Below, one piece after another: positions 2 to 11,485 of a DNA stretch of 11,486 nt (position 1 is its first letter; each line of letters opens with the position of its first letter). Both the position numbers and the translations under genes were made by a program. This stretch comes from Candidatus Helarchaeota ASGARD archaeon Hel_GB_B (GTDB taxonomy: Archaea; Asgardarchaeota; Lokiarchaeia; Helarchaeales; HEL-GB-B), in NCBI GenBank assembly GCA_005191425.1, contig SUPR01000102.1:1-11486 (forward strand), written 5' to 3'. Under the pieces are notes generated by a model. It searched no databases, was not told the DNA's origin, and saw only the letters and a program-made list of their open reading frames with translations.

Positions 2-364
2 TCGTGGCATCAATTCGTCACTATCTTAAAATATAAAATGGAACAAAAAGGAAAGCATTTAATCCTCGTGGACAGGTATTTTCCCAGCTCTAAATTATGT
101 TCGTGTTGTGGGTATAAGAACAAAGACTTGGGACTAAAAGACAGGAGATGGACTTGTCCGCAATGTCAGACTCACCATCATAGAGCTATAAACGCTTCTG
201 ATAATATTGAAGAAGAGGGTAAAAGAATTTTAAGAGAAAAAAATATCAAAATCATTAGGAATAATGATACTACCGTAGGGACTACGGTCGGTGCGTTTGG
301 AGAAGATGTGAGACTCTCCCTCGGAGAGCAATTTTCGATGAATTACGAATCCATCGCCCTTTAG
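2..364 (+). CDS. tnpB: TnpB (IS200/IS605-family RNA-guided nuclease) C-terminal part, 5'-truncated by the window edge; RuvC-III Asp apparently substituted
   Basis: The frame is open from base 2 (SWHQFVTILKYKMEQKGKHLILVDRYFPSSKLCSCCG...), so the ATG at 38 is internal. It shows the TnpB hallmarks YFPSSKxC, zinc-ribbon CSCC...CPQC, 'LGLKDRRWTCP', and HHRAINASDNI, which matches the usual HDRDxNAAxNI. The stop codon lies inside the right-end hairpin. Confidence 0.92.
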   Translation, partial: SWHQFVTILKYKMEQKGKHLILVDRYFPSSKLCSCCGYKNKDLGLKDRRWTCPQCQTHHHRAINASDNIEEEGKRILREKNIKIIRNNDTTVGTTVGAFGEDVRLSLGEQFSMNYESIAL

Positions 365-395: not shown

Positions 396-723
396 ATCTA
401 ATTGTAATATAATAAATCAATTTAAAATTAACTTCTTTTGAGTTAGATACAATTTTTTATTTTCTGGCAATTATTGGAAATTAAAAAATTTTGATAATTA
501 AAATCAAAAATTTTAAATTGATAAAGTATAAAGTTAAATCAAAAAAAAATATATTGTGAAGATAATAGATTAATGTGAAATAAGGATGAAAATATACCTC
601 TAAATTATCTAAATTTCTTAATGATTATTAAATTATGAAAATTTATTATTTTATGGAAAAAGTTATGGTAAATATAATGAAAAATAAAGTAGATATTCAA
701 TTTTAAGGAATTATTTAAATGTT

Positions 724-729
724 AGGTGA
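724..729 (+). promoter_or_regulatory. Archaeal-type ribosome-binding site for aor
   Basis: AGGTGA lies 7 nt upstream of the ATG at 737 and matches part of the archaeal SD consensus GGAGGTGATC. This favours 737 over 719 as the start. Confidence 0.55.
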
Positions 730-736
730 AAAAAAG

Positions 737-2668
737 ATGAGTAAAACCAAAGTTAAAGAGATAACAATACCAGATAAATTGATGGGGTATACACAAGTTA
801 GATTAGACGTAAATTTGACAGATGGTACTATTACAGAGTCAACAATACCGAAGGAATACTGCAGAGATTGGATAGGTGGGTATGGTTTTGGTGCAAAAGT
901 ATTATGGGATGAATTGAAGCCAGGCATAGACCCATTAAGCCCAGATAATATTTTTGTTTGGGCAATTGGCCCATTTCCAACTACGTTACTCCCAACAAGT
1001 TCAAAATATGGCGTTTTTGCCAAATCACCATTGACAGGTTTTTTTGGTATGTCTATTAGTTCCGGTTCGATTGCAGCACAAGCTCGCAGGGCAGGAGTTA
1101 ACTTAATTGTAATTAAGGGAAAATCGCCCACGCCAGTTTATTTAGTAATTGATGACGATGAACGATATTTAAAAGAATGTGGTGATCTCTGGGGAAAAAG
1201 TTGCTGGGAAACTGAGGAAATAATAAAGAATGAATTTAATGACCAAAGAATAGCTGTCATGGAAATTGGACCTGCTGGAGAACGAATGAGTAGAATTGCA
1301 TGTATTACAAACGATAGAAATAGACAAGCTGGTAGGACAGGCATGGGAGCTGTAATGGGTTCTAAGAACTTAAAAGCGATTGTATTTAGAGGGACAAAAG
1401 GTGTAAAAGTTGCACACCCAGTAGAATTTTATAAAAAAGCAAAGAAATTAAATAAAGTAGCAGTTGGACCTGCAACTTCAAAATATAGAGATTTAGGGAC
1501 TCCAGCTGGTTTGACGTCATATAATAAACTTGGTATGATGCCTACATTTAATCATAGAGAAGGGACTTGGGAAAAAATTGATGAAGGTCCTATAACTCCG
1601 GAGGAATTAAATGAAAAATGGGTTGCCAAGAAATGTGCTTGTACCGGATGTCCTATAGCATGTGACCATCTTGCGAGAGTTCCAAAAACACATCCCGATT
1701 ATCCTGGTATAGTTTCTAGTGTTGATATTGAACTGGTTTATTCATATGGAACTGGAACTGGTTGTTATGATTGGCCAACTATATTTAAATGTATTCAAAT
1801 AAGTGATAATCTAGGAATAGACGGTATATCAGGTGGAGTTACAGCTCAGATGGCTTGTGAATTATATGACTTGGGAATTATAACAAAAGAGGAATTAGGA
1901 TATGAACTTCCATTTGGGTCGACTAAAAATTTAGTCCGATTTGTAAAGGAAATGGCATTAGGAGAGGGGTTTGCCGGAAAGATTTTTGGCGATGGTACCA
2001 AAATGGCAGGCATACGTTTGGAAGAAATGGGTAAAAAGAATGCCAGCTTTTATGGGATGAACATAAAGGGCTTGGAATTGCCCGCTTTTGATCTACATGG
2101 GATGAGCAGTTTTGCTGTAGGTGAAAGTGTATCAATTCGAGGTGCATGCCATTTAAGGAATGGTGCCTATGGACTTGATGCCAAAGGAACATTTGATAGG
2201 TTCGGTTATGATAAACCACTCGAACGAGGTAAAGCTATTATAAAATTAGAAGATACATATTCAATAATTGATAGCTTTATAATTTGCAAATTTACGCGAG
2301 GTATATATGAAGGGAATGCCGAATTAGCTGAAGTTTATGAACTTGTTACTGGAATTCCAATGACTGAAGAATATTTGATGAAACGTGCAGAGGCAATTAC
2401 AACTCTATCGAAATGTTTCAATATAAGAGAGGGTGCGACAAGAAAAGACGACCATCCACCACCAAAATACTTCAAAGAAGCCCATACAAAAGGACCTGCA
2501 AAAGGAGTAACTCTAAAAGAAGATGGATTTCAAAAACTTCTCACTGGATATTATAAAGCTCGAGGTTGGGATGAAGATACAGGAATACCTACTGATGAAA
2601 AATTAAAAGAACTTGAATTGGATTTTGTAATTGATGAAATGAATAAAGCGAGGGCGAATAAAAAATGA
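737..2668 (+). CDS. aor: Tungsten/molybdopterin aldehyde:ferredoxin oxidoreductase family catalytic subunit (AOR/WOR)
   Basis: Family motifs: GGYGFGAKVLWDEL..GIDPLSPDN, KSPLTG, IGPAGE, GRTGMGAVMGSKNLKAI, [4Fe-4S] CTGCPIAC (1640-1663) plus the distal Cys in IICKF, DNLGIDGIS pterin-binding motif, RGACH, and the C-terminal YYKARGWD..GIP. The ORF track start at 719 is an alternative. Confidence 0.95.
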   Translation: MSKTKVKEITIPDKLMGYTQVRLDVNLTDGTITESTIPKEYCRDWIGGYGFGAKVLWDELKPGIDPLSPDNIFVWAIGPFPTTLLPTSSKYGVFAKSPLTGFFGMSISSGSIAAQARRAGVNLIVIKGKSPTPVYLVIDDDERYLKECGDLWGKSCWETEEIIKNEFNDQRIAVMEIGPAGERMSRIACITNDRNRQAGRTGMGAVMGSKNLKAIVFRGTKGVKVAHPVEFYKKAKKLNKVAVGPATSKYRDLGTPAGLTSYNKLGMMPTFNHREGTWEKIDEGPITPEELNEKWVAKKCACTGCPIACDHLARVPKTHPDYPGIVSSVDIELVYSYGTGTGCYDWPTIFKCIQISDNLGIDGISGGVTAQMACELYDLGIITKEELGYELPFGSTKNLVRFVKEMALGEGFAGKIFGDGTKMAGIRLEEMGKKNASFYGMNIKGLELPAFDLHGMSSFAVGESVSIRGACHLRNGAYGLDAKGTFDRFGYDKPLERGKAIIKLEDTYSIIDSFIICKFTRGIYEGNAELAEVYELVTGIPMTEEYLMKRAEAITTLSKCFNIREGATRKDDHPPPKYFKEAHTKGPAKGVTLKEDGFQKLLTGYYKARGWDEDTGIPTDEKLKELELDFVIDEMNKARANKK

Positions 2669-3189
2669 GTGCTAGTAAAAAGTTTCATAGGTTTATTTTT
2701 GTAGATCCAAATTTATGTACTGGATGCGAAATCTGCGAAGCAGTATGTTCATTTGTTCATGATGGAGAATTTAATCCATTAAATACAAGAATACACCGCG
2801 TTAGAATAGAACCAATTGTAAATATAGCATTGTCATGTCAAAAATGCGAAGATGCCCCTTGTATTCGGGCTTGTATGGAAAATGCCATTGAAAAAGATGA
2901 AGAAGGGTCAATAATTATCGATAAAGACAAATGTACAGGCTGCGGATTTTGTGTAAGAGCTTGTCCATTTGGTGTGATTACGATCCATTTAGATTCAAGA
3001 ATTGCCATAGCATGTGATTTATGCGAAAATATGAAGGAAGAATTTATTGATCCAGAGGTCGGTAAAAAAGAGCCCCAATGTATAATATTCTGTCCAAAAG
3101 AAGCAATTTCACTGAAAAATGTTGAACAGATTGGAGAAGAAACAAGGATAGATGCTGTAAAACGATTATTAGCAGAGCAACTTGATTAA
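2665..3189 (+). CDS. 4x[4Fe-4S] electron-transfer subunit (DmsB/CooF/HycB-like), partner of AOR
   Basis: Four Cys groups: CTGCEICEAVC, CQKCEDAPCIRAC, CTGCGFCVRACP and CDLC...PQCIIFCP. Its ATG overlaps the aor stop (ATGA, 2665-2668), which implies translational coupling. Confidence 0.95.
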   Translation: MSASKKFHRFIFVDPNLCTGCEICEAVCSFVHDGEFNPLNTRIHRVRIEPIVNIALSCQKCEDAPCIRACMENAIEKDEEGSIIIDKDKCTGCGFCVRACPFGVITIHLDSRIAIACDLCENMKEEFIDPEVGKKEPQCIIFCPKEAISLKNVEQIGEETRIDAVKRLLAEQLD

Positions 3190-3288: not shown

Positions 3289-4002
3289 TCATAAATAGTT
3301 CAGTAATTCATGCAAATTATTGATTTCCAAATCAGGACTTGGGATATTTTCTTTTATTTTTCTGTTTTTTCGATTGATATATACGGCATAAATACCAGAA
3401 TTTTTAGCTCCGAAAATATCAGCAAATTGTGAGTCTCCTACATGAATGATTTCGTTATGATTAATATTTAAATTGTCAAGAATTTTATTAAAAAAGATTT
3501 TATTAGGTTTATATGCTTGAAGGTTCTCAGAGGTAAAGATATGATCAAATTTATTCTGAATGTTAAATTTTTTTAATTTATCATAAAGAAAATCATTATC
3601 GATATTTGAAGAAATAACAATTTTATAACCTTTATTTTTAATTTTATCGAGAGTTTCAGGGACTTCTGCAAATAATTCAATATCATTTAAAAGGTCAAAC
3701 CATATTTTAAGTGCATAACTTGGGTCGCCTTGTAATTTGTATTTATTAAATAGTTTTTTTGTTGCTTTTAAAAAGAAAATTTTTTGAGTAAGAAATTTTT
3801 GGTCTTTGTTATTAAGATTTCTCCACCCATCATTTATTAGAGAATCCCATTCTTTATGAAATTCATCTACATTAATGTCTTTTTTATTGAAATGGTCTAA
3901 AATAAGTTGACAAGCAATTGGGTGGGAATTTTTATCATTTAGTAAGGTATTAAAAGCGTCAAAAGATATTACTTTTATTTTATTTAGATTAAATATTGCC
4001 AT
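3289..4002 (-). CDS. HAD-superfamily hydrolase, subfamily IA (haloacid dehalogenase-like)
   Basis: Motif I ISFDAFNTLL, helical cap, motif II ISSN, motif III YKPNKIFF, motif IV HVGDSQFADIFGAKNSG, and C-terminal PDLEINNLHEL. Confidence 0.93.
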   Translation of the reverse strand: MAIFNLNKIKVISFDAFNTLLNDKNSHPIACQLILDHFNKKDINVDEFHKEWDSLINDGWRNLNNKDQKFLTQKIFFLKATKKLFNKYKLQGDPSYALKIWFDLLNDIELFAEVPETLDKIKNKGYKIVISSNIDNDFLYDKLKKFNIQNKFDHIFTSENLQAYKPNKIFFNKILDNLNINHNEIIHVGDSQFADIFGAKNSGIYAVYINRKNRKIKENIPSPDLEINNLHELLNYL

Positions 4003-4087: not shown

Positions 4088-7000
4088 TTATTCTTCTTCT
4101 AATTTTCTCATAATTTCTTTAGCGCGTTTAGAGAATATGTTTGCTTTTCGTCTATTATTGATCCTCAGTGCAAGTTTAGAGGCATATTGATATAGTTCAA
4201 TAGCGCTTTCAAGTTCATTATTTCGCAATGCTTCTCTAGCTTTTCTAATTATTGACCCGATCTCCAAATTAATTTCTTCAAATTGTTCTTGAGTTAATTC
4301 TCCCGGTTTAGCAATAATTTCTTCTTCAACTTCTTTTTTTGGTTTTTTCCAGGTTTTCTTTTTCTTTGGACTTAGTTTGTCTAGTTCATCATATTCTTTA
4401 GCTTTATCCAGAAATACGCTAGCCATGTGATGTTTATTGATGTTTACCGAGAGATTAGCGATATATCGATAAAGTTCGGCTACTCTTTTAAATTGTTCCT
4501 TTTCGATTGCAATTTTAATTGTTTTTAAATTATCTTTAATAGAGTTTTGAATTTCTTCGATTTCTTCAAGCGAGAGTTTAACGGGGACTTCTTCTTTTGG
4601 TCTAATTGCTTCTATTTTTTCTTTTTCCTCGGGTTTTATTTCTTCTTCCTCTTCTTCTTTAACTTTTTCTTCTTGTGAGATCTGTTTGATAATACGTTTG
4701 ATATCCTGAGCAGGTACAATTACTTTTCTTTCATGAATATTCTTATAGACCAAGTAAGTGGCAATAACAGCGATCATAATAATAGCAATAGCAATAATGA
4801 GTGCATAAGGAAATTTGTAAGTTATTGGAGGGTTATATGGAATAATATGAATTGTAGTTTCATTTAATTTTTCGCCATTTAAATTAAAGTTGATAGTCTT
4901 AATACCATCATTATCGTATAGTGTGATGTAAATCTTCCAGTCATTGACTTTATGTATTTCGAGATTTGAATAGAAAGAGTCATTAAAAACTAATTGTATA
5001 TTAGAGAAATGACCAGATAATATTTGAGTTAGGTTTATGGAGTTACCAAAATTGTCTTCAATCACAACAGTGATATTCTGCAGTCCTTCAATGTCAGATA
5101 CATTGCCTTTTATGACCAAATCAATTCCTACATTTAATTGATTACTAGGAAGTCTATCTACCCCGACACAGACTTGAATTTGATTAATTATGGGCTTATT
5201 ATTTAATATGCTAATATTTATAGTTTCAGTTGAATTACTCATAGCTCCTACTTCATCAATTACTCCTACGAAATAAGTATAATTACCAGTTATAAAATCA
5301 ATTGCAGGTGTAAAATTGACTATCCAAAGTGAATAATTTTTACTGTAATTCATTAACATTTTATAAATTGTTTTGTTCGGGGCTCTAATAAAAGCATATA
5401 ATTTGAGTAATGATGTTCTATTTGCTATATCAATATCAGTTGCATTCGCTAACAGCAGTAGTGAGTGATTTCTATATAAATATGATTGCGATAAATGGGT
5501 AGATAAATTTAGTACTGATAAATTATACGGATGTTCAGGTGCCCAGTTAGAAACATTTATTATGATAGAAGAATTTAATGTCCGAGATGCATTATCATAA
5601 TCAACTACTATAAAATATAAATTCCATTCGCCACTTCTATTAAATTGAGAGAATGTATAATTACTTGACCAGTTTAATCCGACTGAGGAAATATCAGACA
5701 TTGGAAAACAAATTTGTTCACCATAAGAGTTATTTAATAGAAATGAAACATTTTTTACGCCTGGATATCCATCTCTGTCAAACACAGAGACATTTATTTC
5801 TAGGGTTTCATTAACGCGGTGTAATTGTGTTGTGTTTAATTTAGTTGGGGACGGTATTTTATAATTAAATTCAGGAAGCCAATTATTAACATAGAAATAC
5901 CAATCATCGTAATCTTTATAATAAGTTTTCTCTCCCCATTCATCTTCTAAAATAATTGCAAACCAATATTTACCGGTTTTATTACCTTTAAAATTGAAAC
6001 TTGCATTCCAAATACCGTATTCTGCTTGATATGGGTTATATGGACTAGGCTGAGTTTCGTTGTGCATCGTAATTTTTGACCAATTTTCTAAAGACAATGA
6101 GAAATTTTGAGAGATTAATAAAGTCACATTTAATTCATTATTTATATGTTTAAGTGGATCTTGATCGGTTTCTATAGCTTTTATACGAACCCAAAAAGTG
6201 TTATTGACTCGCCAGATATTTTCATGAAGGTTTCCAGTTTGATGACTTATATTTTCAAAAGTAGTAGTATCATTTATGCCGGTTGTATTTAAAAGGAACC
6301 TTGTAGTGTTTGATAGAGGGCCAAAATAATTTAAAAACGGAGGGTTACTCCTTAAATAAAATGAACTATGAACACTAAAATTAACATCTTGGTCATAAAT
6401 ACCCCAGACCGCATTTTTCCATCCTAAAGATTCTCGAGTAAATCCGGGAGTCCAATGTCTATCAAAAATTGTTATTGCCCTGTAATTAAAGGTCGTTCCA
6501 TAGATATGTAATTCATTCCCACCAGATTTTTTATAACACGGGATATAATGGTGTTGATAATAGAATTCAGCCAATGGATTTGCACCTAAATCTGTGTTAG
6601 TTAAATTTACATATATAATTGGATTAGAATCAAAATCAGTGATTGATGCCCATAATTGACCATTTCCATCTAAATATGGCCCAAATGGTTTGGTCTGTCT
6701 AATATATATATTGTCTCTATACGAATAATTTAAAAATGCATGTACCAATGGCCTATAATTTCCAGGCATTATTTCAGTCATATTTTGATTTATTAAAATA
6801 TTTTCAGGGTCTCCAAATAAAATATACTGTAAACTATCTTCTGTAGTATTTGAAAATCCACTCAATTCGGTAATATTTTGCTTCCAATTAAATGAATACA
6901 TATGGCTTGTTTTATTAATGCCAGACAAAAGTGCTTGACCAATTGTATAATTTTGGTATTTTAAAAGATTTTGAATAGCATCATAGATTAAGAATTCAGA

Positions 7001-9976
7001 ATATCCGGGACTATTTGCTCGGATATTGCAAATAATGTTGGTAGCGCCGTGAAGTAATAAGGTTTGGGGTATTTTAGTTGACCCAGCAAAAGATGACTGC
7101 ATTAAAATGAACTTTGAATGTATATTGTTTAAATTACTATCTATATATTGGTTAGATTTCCAATCTTGAAGTCCAACACTTGGAAATATGAAATTTTGGT
7201 GCGTGGGATCGGGATCGTTGGGATTTCCACCATTGTTGTATCCACGCCATCCATCTACGTTTGTAAACAGAATCGAACTGTTATCAGAATACGGGATATT
7301 GTCAAATTTTATTGCACCCGAATAATACCAAAAACCAATATTATTTAACAAATTAATAATCTCATTACTTCCAGTATGATTTTCATTATAAAAATTATAT
7401 TTGGATAAATTCTGGGGGATATATTCTGAGAAATTGTAAAAATTATTATTAATAGAGAAATTATGATAATAATTAAGAGAACTTGATAAAGAATTTGGTC
7501 TGTTAATTAACCGTTGATAATTAATTTGATAGTTTATATAATTTACTTCAAGTGATACGTTACCATAAGATACATTTATGATGAAAAATAATTCAGACCT
7601 GTTATGTTGATTTTTATTTAAGAAATTATGAATTTGAGATGCGGGAATGTTATAATAATCAGATTTATCAGTAGTAGAATTAAAAATCGTCGTATTAATA
7701 TATTGTATATCGTTTAAAGACCAATTATAAATAGCCCAGCCTGCTTTTATAATTGAAGCGTCCGAATAATTTAATTTTGCAATTACAGTTATATTTATCG
7801 AAGTGATATTATCAATTGCGATATTGTAATTAGAGAGATTTAAGGCATAAGCCATAATAATTGATCCATTAGGAAAATTTGAATAAGAATGATAAATTGA
7901 ATCGTTATACCGAACTGCATTTATAGTATTAGAGAAATTTCTAGCGGTTAAATTTATTTGCGTTATTGTAGAATTCTGTTCGGGTGGTAAATTAAGGGTC
8001 GATGGGACGTATTCTTTTGTTAAATTTAGAAATGATAAAATAGGATAATAAATATTGTTCATTATTAATATAGAATTTTCATCACTAGATTTACTCCCAA
8101 ACCTTCCTACTAATGATTTTCCAAGGATAGCCCTATCAAATGTCGGTGATAATTCATCAAGAGGCTCAACAATTATTATGGTCTTCTTTTCTGGATAACT
8201 GGCATTCATTGCAGTAAGCCAATTATAGAAAGTATCAGAAAGGTTTACCATATCTTTAAAAACAGGCACACTTTGATTAAGAGTTCCTCTCCCAAATGGA
8301 TTTTGTAAAACACTCTTCACTAATTGTGAGTAAGTATCCTGGGATTTCTGATGGATATTATATGTTTTATTATCAGATAGAATTATTGGAGCACCATGAA
8401 AAGCAGCTAAATAAGATGCAGGTGCAAAATTTCCGTTTGAGCTTGAAGTAATTACAAAATCAGGCTCAGAACTAATAGATTTTATTTTATTAATTATTTT
8501 CGATTCTGTTGTAAGGTTTTCAAAATATGTTATACCAGCATTCTTAAGTTCATTATATATTTTAGTTGGAATTTTTTGTCTTGGGCTTAGAATTATACTT
8601 TTATTTGCACCAAAATATTTTATTGCGTCAATTGTACTATTGGGAACTGAATTATTATTTAAATATAACATTGGATAATTTAAAAGTGATGATAGAACAG
8701 CACCATTACTTGAAGATTCAATACAATTTAATAAATAATTATTTTCTTTTTCCATTTCAATAGAAATATTAAATGGAATTGTCTGATTTTGATTACCCGT
8801 TACTAGTATTTTCCAACTCCCAGTTTCAGGATAATGAAGTGATATTGATTCATTCATTACAGGATTCTGGTAAAATGAAGGGATTACAGGACCTTTAATT
8901 AACTGACCGCGCGGAGAAATGACCCATAAATCTAAATCTTCATTCGATTTTGGTGTCCAAGTTAAATTGATATTTACCGTCTTATAATTATCAGAAATTA
9001 TAATTGGTTTCTCATAATAGGAAATATTACTTACAACTATTTTATATTTAATATTACTCAATTTAGACCTATTTACTATTTCTAATTTCCATTCAGACAT
9101 ATTTCCCGGATATTTTACCTTTGGAAAAAATACCCATTTATTATATGTGTCCAAATTTGTGTCATAAACCCAATTTTTTCCATCAGTCGTATTTCCCATT
9201 AATTTCATTATAAAAGAATTAGAATCATTTATTGTAAAATAATAAGCACCTGTATCTAATGAAATATTGAGCGATGAATAAACGTTTGTCGTATCGTTTA
9301 TTGTCCACTCATTAATGATATTCTGATAACTATTAGCATTTAAACTGTTATTCTCATTAATTGTCGTTTTATATGGTCCTTGGAACGTCATATTTGCAAA
9401 AGCTAAAATTACAGTATCTGGTTTATACCAAAAAAACCGAGCTATCGAACTTGTAATATTGAATAAATCAGTTGAATTGAAAATAGTATTGTCAGAACCT
9501 GTAATACCCGATAATGTATTATAATAATTTATTTCTTGATCAGTTACATTTCCTAAATAAAGTATTTCGTCTATTCCACCCCATTTATCGCAATATTGTT
9601 TCCAATCTTCCAAAAAATAACTTTTATAACTAGTTTGCTTTCCATAAATCTGTGGCATTAAAAATGTTTTGTTTTGAAATTTGTAAATAGAAATGGGAAT
9701 TGAACTTAAATATAAAAATTTATTAAAGTAAGAGGACTCATCTCCACTAATTACTGTTAAGATTTTCATTGGTAAAAAATTGGGGTACTTTTTGAAATAA
9801 ATATTGGCAAAATTATTTTCTGATTTTATTAACTTAAAATCAGTTGCTTGATTAGATTGATGGGATTGATTATTATATTGTAATTTTTCTAAATGAAATA
9901 AAGGTAAATAAATCGAAATCATAAGAATTGAAATTAAAAAAAAAGTTGATACCATTCTACTATTTATTTTTACCAT
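4088..9976 (-). CDS. Giant membrane-anchored surface glycoprotein: CWB2-like repeats + PPC-like domains + inactive C25 (gingipain-like) fold + 5 cadherin/Ig-like repeats + TM + 2 cytoplasmic helical repeats
   Basis: Uninterrupted ~1,960-codon ORF. N-terminal hydrophobic stretch STFFLISILMISIYLPLF; NGAVLSSLLNYPMLYL and FAPASYLAAFHGAPIIL (CWB2-like); LTW...DLDLWVISPRG...PETGSWKILV (PPC-like); VGRF, TIGQAL, YILFGDP (C25-like); TM FPYALIIAIAIIMIAVIATYLVY (4745-4813) followed by basic residues; about 40 N-x-S/T sequons in the first ~830 aa by hand count. Start is ATG 9976 (AGGTTGATC 6 nt upstream) or TTG 9988. Confidence 0.92.
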   Translation of the reverse strand: MVKINSRMVSTFFLISILMISIYLPLFHLEKLQYNNQSHQSNQATDFKLIKSENNFANIYFKKYPNFLPMKILTVISGDESSYFNKFLYLSSIPISIYKFQNKTFLMPQIYGKQTSYKSYFLEDWKQYCDKWGGIDEILYLGNVTDQEINYYNTLSGITGSDNTIFNSTDLFNITSSIARFFWYKPDTVILAFANMTFQGPYKTTINENNSLNANSYQNIINEWTINDTTNVYSSLNISLDTGAYYFTINDSNSFIMKLMGNTTDGKNWVYDTNLDTYNKWVFFPKVKYPGNMSEWKLEIVNRSKLSNIKYKIVVSNISYYEKPIIISDNYKTVNINLTWTPKSNEDLDLWVISPRGQLIKGPVIPSFYQNPVMNESISLHYPETGSWKILVTGNQNQTIPFNISIEMEKENNYLLNCIESSSNGAVLSSLLNYPMLYLNNNSVPNSTIDAIKYFGANKSIILSPRQKIPTKIYNELKNAGITYFENLTTESKIINKIKSISSEPDFVITSSSNGNFAPASYLAAFHGAPIILSDNKTYNIHQKSQDTYSQLVKSVLQNPFGRGTLNQSVPVFKDMVNLSDTFYNWLTAMNASYPEKKTIIIVEPLDELSPTFDRAILGKSLVGRFGSKSSDENSILIMNNIYYPILSFLNLTKEYVPSTLNLPPEQNSTITQINLTARNFSNTINAVRYNDSIYHSYSNFPNGSIIMAYALNLSNYNIAIDNITSINITVIAKLNYSDASIIKAGWAIYNWSLNDIQYINTTIFNSTTDKSDYYNIPASQIHNFLNKNQHNRSELFFIINVSYGNVSLEVNYINYQINYQRLINRPNSLSSSLNYYHNFSINNNFYNFSEYIPQNLSKYNFYNENHTGSNEIINLLNNIGFWYYSGAIKFDNIPYSDNSSILFTNVDGWRGYNNGGNPNDPDPTHQNFIFPSVGLQDWKSNQYIDSNLNNIHSKFILMQSSFAGSTKIPQTLLLHGATNIICNIRANSPGYSEFLIYDAIQNLLKYQNYTIGQALLSGINKTSHMYSFNWKQNITELSGFSNTTEDSLQYILFGDPENILINQNMTEIMPGNYRPLVHAFLNYSYRDNIYIRQTKPFGPYLDGNGQLWASITDFDSNPIIYVNLTNTDLGANPLAEFYYQHHYIPCYKKSGGNELHIYGTTFNYRAITIFDRHWTPGFTRESLGWKNAVWGIYDQDVNFSVHSSFYLRSNPPFLNYFGPLSNTTRFLLNTTGINDTTTFENISHQTGNLHENIWRVNNTFWVRIKAIETDQDPLKHINNELNVTLLISQNFSLSLENWSKITMHNETQPSPYNPYQAEYGIWNASFNFKGNKTGKYWFAIILEDEWGEKTYYKDYDDWYFYVNNWLPEFNYKIPSPTKLNTTQLHRVNETLEINVSVFDRDGYPGVKNVSFLLNNSYGEQICFPMSDISSVGLNWSSNYTFSQFNRSGEWNLYFIVVDYDNASRTLNSSIIINVSNWAPEHPYNLSVLNLSTHLSQSYLYRNHSLLLLANATDIDIANRTSLLKLYAFIRAPNKTIYKMLMNYSKNYSLWIVNFTPAIDFITGNYTYFVGVIDEVGAMSNSTETINISILNNKPIINQIQVCVGVDRLPSNQLNVGIDLVIKGNVSDIEGLQNITVVIEDNFGNSINLTQILSGHFSNIQLVFNDSFYSNLEIHKVNDWKIYITLYDNDGIKTINFNLNGEKLNETTIHIIPYNPPITYKFPYALIIAIAIIMIAVIATYLVYKNIHERKVIVPAQDIKRIIKQISQEEKVKEEEEEEIKPEEKEKIEAIRPKEEVPVKLSLEEIEEIQNSIKDNLKTIKIAIEKEQFKRVAELYRYIANLSVNINKHHMASVFLDKAKEYDELDKLSPKKKKTWKKPKKEVEEEIIAKPGELTQEQFEEINLEIGSIIRKAREALRNNELESAIELYQYASKLALRINNRRKANIFSKRAKEIMRKLEEE
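4100..4576 (-). repeat. Two ~61-65 aa helical repeats (protein level) in the cytoplasmic tail
   Basis: LSLEEIEEIQNSI...AELYRYIANLSVNINKHHMASVFLDKAKE (4382-4576) and LTQEQFEEINLEI...IELYQYASKLALRINNRRKANIFSKRAKE (4100-4297) align without gaps, with 19 of 61 positions identical. Confidence 0.8.
4835..6760 (-). repeat. Five tandem cadherin/Ig-like beta-sandwich repeats (protein level, ~110-155 aa)
   Basis: Repeats start at about 6760 (NYRP), 6349 (SNPP), 5887 (NWLP), 5551 (NWAP) and 5203 (NNKP). Each has a mid DxD-type motif (TDFD, TDQD, FDRD, TDID, SDIE) and a late hydrophobic-D motif (IYDQD, LEDEWG, VVDYDN, VIDEVG, LYDNDG). Confidence 0.65.
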
Positions 9977-10004
9977 ATTTACGATCAACCTAAATGGATT
10001 AATA

Positions 10005-10020
10005 TTTATATAGAGTTCTT
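10005..10020 (-). promoter_or_regulatory. Candidate archaeal TATA box/BRE for the giant surface-protein gene
   Basis: The minus strand reads AAGAACTC-TATATAAA (10020-10005), about 17-30 nt before the TTG/ATG starts. It would place the TSS near 9980-9988, i.e. a short or leaderless mRNA, which partly conflicts with the RBS candidate. Confidence 0.35.
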
Positions 10021-10195: not shown

Positions 10196-11485
10196 TTAAA
10201 ATAGTGCTATATTTACTGCTACCGCTGTAGTTGTTGCAATTCCTTTTTCTGGGCCACTAGATGGTCTTACTTCGTAAGTACCTTCCTTAGTAGTCCAAAC
10301 AAATCGGAAGTAAAGTGTTTCAATTCGGTGTGAGCTTATAGCATCAACTACAAATTCGGGCGTCAATAGAAAATTGAAGTAGTACATTATTATGTAGCTC
10401 TGGTTATATCCTAGCAAATCAGTCATTCCAATCTTTAGAGATTTTGTCTTAGGTGGAGTCGTATTTAAGTTCCATGTCATTGTAGACCTCATCGGGAAAA
10501 TACCAATACGAGCTAGTATTTTCGAATTGGTATCATTTGTATCAGCAGAAATGGATATCCTATCTAAATATCCAAGTGCATATTTCTGGGTCATGTTTAG
10601 GAAGAATTCTCTTAGATAGATATTTGGCCGAATTGTGACATTCAAGTTTATATTACCTTCTAAGTCAATATAGACCATTGTAACATTTACCGTTGGAATG
10701 TTATCAACTTTTTGAGGAACACCTTCTACTTGATAATTATCTTTATACCATATATCGCCCATTTTACCGTTATCTTTGACAAAACTGTCCCAAGCTTCAA
10801 TCCTAACTCTAATACTTTTTGCAAAATGTTGTTGTGTGAAGTTTAGTGTTATTGGGAAAATATTTGATCCGCTCTCGATTGGGCCGTATAATTTATGAGT
10901 TATATTGATCTCAGGTCTGTCATTTAGACTTATATTGAATATTCTCCCGAATCTACTATCCCAATTAGAGTTTAATCCAGGAACTTCTGGATAATAAGCT
11001 AATGGGTCGTATAATTTCGCTTCAATTAAATAGTTTGAAATGAAACCTTCGGGTAATTCAATAGTCTTAGCACCTGTTTCAATACCCCAACTACTGGACC
11101 ATTCTTTAGCCCAGAACCGTACCCAAGCACTAACGTTATAAGATTTTTTACCTTTTTGATAGCCTAAGTCATTAGCGATATCATTTAATTTTACTGCAAA
11201 CTTTACTTGTGAAACATTTTCTAATGAACCAACATTTTTAATCTTTGCCCTGTTGCTAAGGAATAAATTCCAGGATTGAATATTTGGATTTCCTACATCA
11301 TCAGTGCCACCATTTAATGCATAATAATGATGTCCTTTTGCACTGAAATTGGTCAAAGAGCCACTACTTTCATTCCATAATGGTGATCCACCACTTGGCA
11401 GATCCATTAATTTATTCCATCTGTGGTCAGTATCGTTATAATATTGAATTATTACACGTTCAACATTGTTAGCAGAGATATTATC
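10196..11485 (-). CDS. C-terminal portion of an unknown secreted/surface beta-rich glycoprotein, 5'-truncated by the window edge
   Basis: The frame stays open upstream of the ATG at 11407 to the window edge (DNISANNVERVIIQYYNDTDHRWNKL-MDL...). It has more than 10 N-x-S/T sequons, alternating beta-strand patterns, and NDRP/DNIP linker-like motifs. No catalytic motif or TM helix is visible. Confidence 0.85.
   Translation of the reverse strand, partial: DNISANNVERVIIQYYNDTDHRWNKLMDLPSGGSPLWNESSGSLTNFSAKGHHYYALNGGTDDVGNPNIQSWNLFLSNRAKIKNVGSLENVSQVKFAVKLNDIANDLGYQKGKKSYNVSAWVRFWAKEWSSSWGIETGAKTIELPEGFISNYLIEAKLYDPLAYYPEVPGLNSNWDSRFGRIFNISLNDRPEINITHKLYGPIESGSNIFPITLNFTQQHFAKSIRVRIEAWDSFVKDNGKMGDIWYKDNYQVEGVPQKVDNIPTVNVTMVYIDLEGNINLNVTIRPNIYLREFFLNMTQKYALGYLDRISISADTNDTNSKILARIGIFPMRSTMTWNLNTTPPKTKSLKIGMTDLLGYNQSYIIMYYFNFLLTPEFVVDAISSHRIETLYFRFVWTTKEGTYEVRPSSGPEKGIATTTAVAVNIALF

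Follow-up and report, generated by a model that had tools for sequence, protein, structure and literature searches.

A giant type-I membrane glycoprotein of Helarchaeales with a predicted cytoplasmic tail of two MIT/TPR-like modules

Introduction

The S-layer glycoproteins of the Haloferax volcanii csg type possess a C-terminal membrane anchor, in which the membrane helix is followed by just a few basic residues, or are lipid-anchored following cleavage. The protein described here, encoded in an 11,486-nucleotide contig of the Asgard archaeon Hel_GB_B (SUPR01000102.1, analysed in full and hereafter termed the window), resembles these in its large, putatively N-glycosylated ectodomain, its one C-terminal helix and its paucity of cysteines, yet it differs from them in the 218 residues that follow the helix and include two folded modules, and no sequence match to S-layer families was obtained. 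By analogy only, it may also be compared to integrins and cadherins, which similarly combine a large glycosylated ectodomain and a single membrane pass with a short non-enzymatic tail that recruits adaptors; homology to these is absent, and their tails consist mostly of short linear motifs whereas folded modules are present here. Cultured Lokiarchaeia have no ordered S-layer, and their cell bodies and long protrusions bear complex surface proteins (PMC9834061). The genome under study belongs to the Helarchaeales and carries a full ESCRT cluster. Binding between MIT domains and MIM helices has been demonstrated for Asgard Vps4 (PMC7240154). An original prediction, made from the DNA sequence, had described a receptor-like giant protein linking an adhesive and pseudo-protease ectodomain to a cytoplasmic protein-interaction tail, with a possible role in contact sensing or trafficking. 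We found no published description of this architecture.

Results

The coding sequence of the 1,962-residue glycoprotein occupies 4088..9976 on the reverse strand (as do all features below), with its stop codon at 4088-4090, and full-length homologues comprise 1,959-1,961 residues. The open reading frame extends to a TTG codon (4088..9988); however, translation is likely to begin at the ATG at 9976, as this codon is preceded by a Shine-Dalgarno-like site, GGTTGATC, at 9990-9983, and the ATG-started gene coincides exactly with the limits given for it in the original prediction. An independent ENA assembly holds a 99%-identical copy of the gene, and several studies of vents and marine sediments have yielded metagenome runs with near-identical DNA, so that the gene is no assembly artefact; none of the public runs listed with near-identical DNA was an RNA dataset.

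Kyte-Doolittle windows exceeded 1.8 at two places only, corresponding to residues 8-30 (9887..9955) and 1722-1744 (4745..4813), in agreement with the hydrophobic N-terminus and single transmembrane helix that had been foreseen. The former segment, preceded by K3 and R7, may serve as a signal peptide or, if left uncleaved, as an N-terminal anchor, while the latter reaches a hydropathy of 2.97, is kept in all homologues and is directly followed by the sequence KNIHERK. The ectodomain of about 1,690 residues lying between them (residues 31-1721; 4814..9886) contains 13% Asn, only 6 Cys and 94 N-x-S/T sequons, and its homologues are alike in this respect. In 2,000 shuffles of the same ectodomain residues 34.4 +/- 5.0 sequons were obtained (maximum 54), representing a 2.7-fold excess with a z of 11.9, and a reversed control motif occurred 36 times; by this count the ectodomain is shown to have been selected for dense, predicted N-glycosylation. 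The 218-residue tail harbours one sequon as compared to 0.7 expected, a scarcity explained by amino-acid composition alone (16% K, 19% E and few N, S or T), for which reason the sequon-poor tail was dropped as evidence of topology. In five homologues the contrast is the same, their ectodomains containing 67-112 sequons and their tails 0-1. With its sequon-rich ectodomain, one membrane helix and folded, non-enzymatic helical tail, the protein is, as judged from sequence, a single-pass, type-I (N-out/C-in) membrane glycoprotein.

Upstream of this gene, the window includes the C-terminal 429 residues (10196..11485) of a sequon-rich protein of about 3,000 residues, which is cut by the contig end and is devoid of a C-terminal membrane anchor. 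A giant gene on the same strand is positioned directly upstream in three other loci, and the partner at the distant locus P0006 retains 30% identity (E 2e-48), while a distant one-module homologue, P0013, has no upstream partner gene. The glycoprotein gene is usually preceded by one for a conserved, predicted secreted glycoprotein of about 3,000 residues.

Within the ectodomain, an AlphaFold2 model of residues 426-1106, based on an alignment of 6 sequences, mostly failed (mean pLDDT 41) and the list of ectodomain domains is consequently in part conjecture. It comprises a tentative Rossmann-like segment of alternating beta strands and alpha helices at residues 426-500 (8477..8701; pLDDT 53-88 for these blocks only), a jelly-roll beta-sandwich resembling carbohydrate-binding modules at residues 668-821 (7514..7975), a degenerate peptidase-C25 (gingipain)-like segment at residues 885-1065 (6782..7324), and a membrane-proximal region at residues about 1388-1700 (4877..5815) with weak Ig-like or beta-sandwich signals, where matches to DUF4625, Big_7, MG2, PKD and Big_13 all scored under their cut-offs. 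The adhesive character originally ascribed to the ectodomain is weakly favoured by the jelly-roll domain, which was modelled at middling confidence. Pfam and NCBIfam agreed in detecting no kinase, cyclase or DNA-binding domain in the whole protein, as had been anticipated, and the NCBIfam search returned nothing at all. Neither database returned an S-layer or surface-layer family at E <= 1, most of the ectodomain being without a usable model, and PDB sequence searches with the tail, a tail profile and an ectodomain profile retrieved nothing meaningful. In these searches the protein as a whole matched no characterised S-layer or protease family.

The C25-like segment aligned by hhalign to Helarchaeales C25 peptidases with 83% probability (E 9e-6, 86 columns), the Cys column falling on the Ser of QSS. 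Residues 883-1059 present their motifs in the same order as gingipains: a beta-strand followed by WYYSG takes the place of the C25 Y-x-G-H-G, a hydrophobic strand ending in QSS (QSSFAG) takes that of the Cys strand, and L-F-G-D-P, within an FGDPEN that matches the C25 end motif, closes the domain. The segment differs from C25 in the loss of the catalytic His and Cys in every family member, in about 45 additional residues between the two motifs, in the lack of a Pfam C25 match in this protein at E <= 1, and in that the fold was not obtained from the model. In a distant homologue of 2,078 residues, PF01364 scored 20.3 bits, or 23 bits together with neighbouring pieces (profile positions 296-372), against a cut-off of 23 bits. 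A search for distant relatives with the C25-like part recovered the family itself only, and leads from the ESM Atlas pointed to PPC and archaeal Peptidase_C25 (search by shape; by features, scores 0.81-0.83). The pseudo-protease element of the original prediction is moderately supported.

Following the membrane helix, the tail begins with a juxtamembrane motif (residues 1745-1770; 4667..4744) of the pattern P-x4-K-x-I-I-x2-I-S-x-E, in which P, K, I, I, I, S and E are invariant in 7 homologues and which is richer in invariant positions than any other stretch of the tail. It continues with an acidic E/K-rich spacer modelled as a low-confidence helix (residues 1771-1797; 4586..4666), module 1 (residues 1798-1870; 4367..4585; module profile E 5e-26), a polybasic linker of the type KKKKTWKKPKK, K-rich in all homologues (residues 1871-1889; 4310..4366), and module 2 at the extreme C-terminus (residues 1890-1962; 4091..4309). 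The two modules are mutually homologous repeats of about 70 residues (31% identity over 64 ungapped residues, E 5e-10), and each was modelled by AlphaFold2 as a bundle of three helices with pLDDT >90 (tail-model positions 63-85, 89-105 and 109-128; 156-178, 182-198 and 202-221). The tail is on this basis not disordered, in keeping with the original prediction, which had also correctly described its two helical repeats. The low pTM of 0.36 indicates that the modules are independent of each other, and the 19-residue polybasic linker has a pLDDT <50. Tail identity amounts to 40-59% per 50-residue window as compared to about 50% overall, meaning that conservation is not higher in the tail than in the ectodomain; both modules are retained in homologues of down to 31-36% identity.

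The closest relatives of these repeats would appear to be MIT domains and single TPR hairpins. The modules form asymmetric antiparallel three-helix bundles of about 70-80 residues, as do the MIT domains of Vps4/SKD1, MITD1 and USP8 (about 70 residues), with which they share the pattern A..A...(L)Y..A in helices 1-2 and K/R-A-x-E in helix 3, while the tandem arrangement of two modules is shared with Vta1/LIP5 and calpain-7. Differences from MIT include a shorter loop between helices 2 and 3, evident as an 11-column gap in the hhalign alignment, and the attachment of the modules to a giant membrane glycoprotein, at its cytoplasmic end, whereas MIT domains reside on a soluble ATPase, protease or adaptor. 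Module 2 alone covered positions 6-63 of 66 of the Pfam MIT profile (PF04212; E 0.0029) with 18.1 bits, under the gathering score of 30 bits, and module 1 gave no match; among 12 homologous tails at E <= 1, three matched MIT (best E 0.011) and three TPR_12 (best E 0.0028). Aligned by hhalign to 30 Asgard Vps4 MIT domains, the repeats reached 87% (E 3.9e-6), and 78 copies of the module reached 94.2% against Asgard Vps4 MIT (E 1.1e-7, 49 columns), as compared to 28.6-48.5% overall for reversed decoys and 28.6% for the one run beside the latter; the module profile failed to retrieve this genome's own Vps4 MIT at E <= 1e-4. Among the best 50 of 48,161 chains in a structure comparison, eight were MIT-domain structures, including LIP5, Vta1 and calpain-7 (rmsd 1.8-3.0 A over 59-70 residues, 18-25% identity), with TPR and designed bundles level with them in Z, and a Foldseek search of the PDB with the whole tail (best E 0.086) returned TPR and tandem-MIT proteins intermixed. 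With respect to TPR, helices 2-3 of the module resemble one hairpin, and LGN, Rap and designed TPR proteins were among the structural matches. TPR_2 reached just E 2 in this tail; paralogous modules pass TPR_2 and TPR_8, as in a protein on contig C142 composed of these modules only (47.6 and 42.7 bits, both above cut-offs). TPRs usually occur as contiguous arrays of at least three motifs that build a superhelix, while here two solitary modules, each a hairpin plus a long leading helix, are split by disordered charged linkers.

In this genome 59 copies of the module are distributed over 31 proteins. These include type-I glycoproteins on contigs C124, C134, C106 and C128, the ectodomains of which exhibit no BLAST similarity to the one described here, several polytopic membrane proteins, soluble proteins with 5-9 copies, and zinc-ribbon proteins. 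The module profile at E <= 1e-4 had 38 matches here, as compared to 2-6 per genome in the rest of the class and 0-2 in the remainder of the phylum, the first count being inflated because sequences from the present genome were in part the source of the profile. The tail module has expanded in this lineage and recurs on many different proteins. The family of the whole protein is rare, with 8 matches in a search of 1.84 billion representatives, every one of which derives from Helarchaeales or Lokiarchaeia-type MAGs, and the full two-module tail was encountered only in genomes of the same order. Large MIT-matching frames in sister genomes were rejected as orthologues, being soluble multi-module giants or carrying N-terminal modules. 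A roadblock/longin-like segment discerned by eye in the tails encoded on C134, C106 and C124 was not confirmed by Pfam.

Discussion

On balance, and with modest confidence, we regard the gene product as probably the membrane-anchored subunit, endowed with a docking tail, of a complex that two surface glycoproteins form in Helarchaeales and related Lokiarchaeia. The ectodomain, with a Rossmann-like segment, a glycan-binding-like jelly-roll domain, a dead gingipain-like domain and Ig-like stalk domains as its presumed parts, would tether the secreted partner to the outside of the cell. The tail, in the order amphipathic juxtamembrane motif, acidic spacer, module 1, polybasic linker and module 2, would act as a docking site in which each module, as a TPR-clan bundle of MIT type, may recognise a helix or peptide within a cytoplasmic protein. 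In this manner surface proteins could be coupled to a common scaffold or network of adaptors in the cytoplasm, which would govern their positioning, clustering or turnover. Such coupling is the likeliest role, rather than enzymatic signalling, because the module is found on four further type-I glycoproteins and on polytopic and soluble proteins; docking is deduced from the fold and from the reuse of the domain. The expansion and reuse of the module, together with the paired glycoprotein of about 3,000 residues, point to a generic docking tail on a surface complex and not to a dedicated receptor, and it is in this sense that the receptor-like reading of the original prediction is amended: its type-I architecture stands, while contact sensing or trafficking stays conjectural, the tail being no better conserved than the ectodomain. 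This want of higher conservation also weighs against the docking-tail reading itself, just as the P0013 locus, lacking a partner, counts against a two-protein complex.

That the ectodomain is an active gingipain-type surface protease, and the protein hence a membrane-bound peptidase, might be suspected as the similarity to C25 spans the C-terminal half of the catalytic domain and several true C25 peptidases are encoded by this genome and its relatives; with Ser, Gly or Asp in the catalytic Cys column of all seven family members inspected, no His in the WYYSG motif, hence no His-Cys dyad, and no Pfam C25 match, this has practically no chance of being correct, and was ruled out on account of the missing catalytic residues. 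A structural envelope glycoprotein substituting for an S-layer, in which the tail would only stabilise anchoring by self-association of modules or by contact of the linker with acidic lipids, is improbable, if the best placed of the alternatives. It would accord with a giant, heavily glycosylated ectodomain paired with a secreted giant, with the conservation of the polybasic linker and amphipathic juxtamembrane motif, with the lack of enzymatic and signalling domains and with the many irregular surface proteins of Lokiarchaeia. It does not readily explain why two well-folded modules are kept down to 31-36% identity, and reuse of the module in soluble multi-module and zinc-ribbon proteins favours protein-protein interaction. 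For other archaeal surface proteins, one membrane helix and a few basic residues suffice for anchoring.

Somewhat less probable again is that both modules are functional MIT domains which bind MIM helices of ESCRT-III, the surface complex thereby recruiting ESCRT-III or being sorted as its cargo, in the context of vesicle budding, protrusion scission or membrane repair. The near-complete coverage of the Pfam MIT profile by module 2, the hhalign values of 87-94% against Asgard Vps4 MIT and the eight MIT structures among the 50 best chains speak in its favour, as does contig C128, where genes for Vps4, two ESCRT-III proteins and Vps25 lie together with others of the ESCRT and ubiquitin systems, both ESCRT-III proteins ending in a MIM1-like L-x3-I-x2-L-K helix. 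The sub-threshold Pfam score and the absence of a match for module 1 tell against it, as do the equal recovery of MIT and TPR_12 in 3 of 12 tails, paralogous modules that score as TPR_2 or TPR_8 instead of MIT, the failure of the module profile to find the genome's own Vps4 MIT, and the tie of TPR and designed bundles with MIT in Z. A single ESCRT-III ligand moreover seems unlikely given 59 copies in 31 proteins. The broader proposition, that the tails of this and related Asgard surface glycoproteins carry MIT-type docking sites for ESCRT-III, is slightly more doubtful still. If true, giant Asgard surface complexes would be wired directly to the membrane-scission machinery, and receptor sorting, or the cargo-triggered formation of vesicles and protrusions, would then have an archaeal forerunner.

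How the surface of Lokiarchaeia is linked to the eukaryote-like machinery inside the cell, comprising actin, ESCRT and small GTPases, bears on models of eukaryogenesis, and this family offers a concrete candidate in the form of a conserved two-gene surface complex, the anchored subunit of which ends in MIT/TPR-like modules. Should the module only self-associate or have no partner, the protein would be an ordinary, if very large, envelope glycoprotein. The network to which the module belongs numbers at least 31 proteins in a single genome, four other single-pass glycoproteins among them, and finding the ligand of the module would reveal what Asgard surface proteins couple to.

Results

The window spans the entire 11,486-base contig C5 of a 3.54-Mb assembly (28% G+C), and its long minus-strand ORF (4088..9988) opens at a TTG. 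This TTG falls within a Shine-Dalgarno-like sequence, GGTTGATC, with an ATG at 9976 downstream at the usual spacing, and the product is therefore a giant protein of 1,962 residues, in exact agreement with the coordinates of the original prediction. A TATA-like TCTATATAAATATT at window 10001-10014 (-) sits just ~30 bases ahead of the ATG and overlaps the place where the Shine-Dalgarno-like sequence (9983-9990, -) is expected; an own promoter and co-transcription with the upstream giant gene are both possible. The giant gene is real: a second assembly carries a copy with 99% identity, and DNA nearly identical to it occurs in metagenomes of vents and marine sediments from several studies. MAGs assigned to Helarchaeota, Lokiarchaeota and Promethearchaeota supply the named homologues of its product. 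The downstream genes, encoding a HAD hydrolase (3289-4002, -) and an aldehyde:ferredoxin oxidoreductase overlapping a 4Fe-4S ferredoxin gene (719-3189, +), are syntenic with it in close relatives only, and comparison of homologous loci yielded no functional hint from them. At window 2-364 (+) the contig end cuts a TnpB/Cas12f-like (IS605 OrfB) gene, leaving a C-terminal fragment with a TNB zinc-ribbon domain (E 5.6e-22); a sister assembly carries a complete 421-aa gene at this place.

Hydropathy analysis established just two hydrophobic segments in the giant protein (residues 8-30 and 1722-1744), in line with the predicted hydrophobic N-terminus and single transmembrane helix. The 1,691 residues between them contain 94 N-x-S/T sequons, as compared to 34.4 +/- 5.0 in shuffles of the same residues (z 11.9) and 36 occurrences of the reversed motif, so that the proposed sequon-rich ectodomain was confirmed. 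N-glycosylation in archaea takes place on the outer face, and the excess is a signature of selection for this modification. In five homologues the outer part holds 67-112 sequons and the tail, the C-terminal part that follows the membrane helix, 0-1; sequon scarcity in the tail, which has 218 residues with 16% K and 19% E, was rejected as topology evidence, its composition alone predicting 0.7.

Pfam returned only sub-threshold Ig-like matches on the ectodomain, in its membrane-proximal third, and AlphaFold modelled residues 426-1106 poorly (mean pLDDT 41), with a beta-alpha segment at 426-500 as one of two usable parts. Residues 883-1059 display the motif order of C25 (gingipain) peptidases. 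When aligned by hhalign with eight C25 domains of Helarchaeales genomes, the stretch running from the Cys strand up to the closing G-D-P motif scored 83% (E 9e-6); in the 2,078-aa homologue from another genome, G063, Pfam C25 scored 20-23 bits. Every member has Ser, Gly or Asp in the catalytic Cys column, and another sequence stands in place of the His motif, which makes 'pseudo-protease', the term used originally, a fair description; that this segment represents a degenerate protease domain is moderately supported by these alignments. Elsewhere in the genome a Peptidase_C25 match of 110 bits (G000:C163:8580-9527, +) is broken by one TAG and one TAA and is a possible pseudogene, and some C25 paralogues of the related genomes L078 and L079 also lack the catalytic Cys. 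In the giant protein, as anticipated, neither catalytic nor DNA-binding domains were detected.

From the membrane the tail comprises a juxtamembrane motif, an acidic spacer, module 1, a K-rich linker and module 2. The conserved motif, P-x4-K-x-I-I-x2-I-S-x-E, is its densest cluster of invariant residues. The two helical repeats noticed originally align gap-free (31% identity, E 5e-10), and AlphaFold2 with a 12-sequence alignment modelled each as a three-helix bundle of its own with pLDDT above 90; the connecting linkers have low confidence (pTM 0.36). The tail is thus folded and, by topology, cytoplasmic; neither of the outcomes named beforehand as telling against the prediction, an extracellular or a disordered tail, was found. 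When the repeats were searched exhaustively against 1.84 billion representatives, only 8 proteins were recovered, all of the same family or its fragments. A more distant branch, consisting of the 2,028-aa homologue P0013 and members from two sister-family genomes, has one module only.

Module 2 on its own covers nearly all of the Pfam MIT profile, with a score (18.1 bits) under the cut-off of 30, and module 1 has no Pfam MIT match. Among 12 homologous tails MIT and TPR_12 were each matched three times, and paralogous modules pass TPR_2 and TPR_8, not MIT. Against 30 Asgard Vps4 MIT domains, hhalign gave 87% for 23 family repeats; 78 module copies of this genome gave 94.2% (E 1.1e-7) against Asgard Vps4 MIT, as compared to 28.6% for a reversed decoy. 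The module profile failed to recover the genome's own Vps4 MIT at E <= 1e-4. The module is not a demonstrated MIT family member, and is viewed here as a distinct TPR-clan unit of MIT-type architecture, a putative small helix- or peptide-binding bundle.

Two rounds of HMM searching in the six-frame ORFs identified 59 modules in 31 proteins of this genome. Other ectodomains carrying the same tail module, which the original prediction proposed to survey, do exist: four further single-pass glycoproteins, with 8-67 sequons each, end their cytoplasmic tails in one or two modules. These are encoded on contigs C124 (G000:C124:19462-25053; 1,863 aa, plus a zinc ribbon), C134 (G000:C134:12309-17411; 1,700 aa), C106 (G000:C106:26807-31849; 1,680 aa) and C128 (408 aa), and their ectodomains have no BLAST similarity to the giant protein. 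The first three have cytoplasmic tails of 450-540 residues with the three-helix module at the end; a roadblock/longin-like segment right after the membrane, read by eye, had no Pfam match and was dismissed. Modules also occur in polytopic membrane proteins (C112, with nine, C107 and C121) and zinc-ribbon proteins (C132 and C92). The C112 protein (G000:C112:11884-14667, -) is nearly all module, its nine copies arranged around two membrane helices, and a soluble protein (G000:C142:2658-4253, +) is made only of modules, in eight copies. Outside this order the commonest carrier is a conserved two-module soluble protein of ~300 residues, present in most Lokiarchaeia genomes sampled; here it lies at G000:C163:11375-12304 (+), its N-terminal ~100 residues preceding the two modules. 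Sister-family genomes encode very large soluble proteins (from more than 1,100 to more than 2,100 residues) built up of similar units, with sub-threshold Pfam MIT matches. At E <= 1e-4 the module profile has 38 matches here, a count inflated by the inclusion of some of this genome's own sequences in the profile, 2-6 in each of eleven other genomes of the class and 0-2 in each genome of other Asgard classes.

Directly upstream, window 10196-11485 (-) encodes the C-terminal 429 residues of a second giant protein. At three homologue loci (65%, 57% and 36% identical) a giant sequon-rich gene lies on the same strand 90-300 bases upstream, and the window ORF shares 30% identity (E 2e-48) with its counterpart at the most distant locus of the three. 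This upstream partner has ~3,000 residues where complete, lacks a C-terminal membrane helix in the one full C-terminus read, and has no Pfam match. The P0013 locus is without this neighbour.

Discussion

The occurrence of one module on unrelated ectodomains speaks for a cytoplasmic ligand or scaffold common to them, and against a one-off receptor. ESCRT-III is a candidate ligand, as the same genome has an Asgard-type ESCRT cluster on contig C128, comprising a Vps4 whose MIT domain is strong (55.8 bits), two ESCRT-III genes of the Snf7 family, Vps25, ESCRT-I/II-like genes, ubiquitin and E2 genes, and the hhalign comparisons point to MIT-type architecture. Genuine ESCRT-III docking sites are nonetheless improbable to our minds, the modules scoring under the MIT cut-off and their paralogues matching TPR. 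We found no description in the literature of MIT/TPR-like modules on Asgard surface proteins, and in the part of an ESCRT survey consulted (PMC11188069) MIT is mentioned only for Vps4.

Somewhat less doubtful, albeit still unlikely, is a protein with a purely structural role in the envelope, its tail serving only to stabilise anchoring; this would accord with the giant glycosylated ectodomain, but the folded modules of the tail recur on soluble proteins, which speaks against it. An active protease, to which the C25-like motif order might point, is highly improbable given the replaced Cys and His positions. We rate the giant protein as an archaeal anchored surface glycoprotein, a known kind, of which the folded adaptor tail is its own variation. 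The analysis shows its topology, glycosylation bias, folded modules, module reuse and conserved gene pair; the physical complex with the upstream protein, and any binding by the modules, we infer. On balance we lean towards an anchored subunit which would hold its secreted giant partner on the cell surface of this archaeon, while the tail modules would dock a cytoplasmic partner common to its other surface and membrane proteins.
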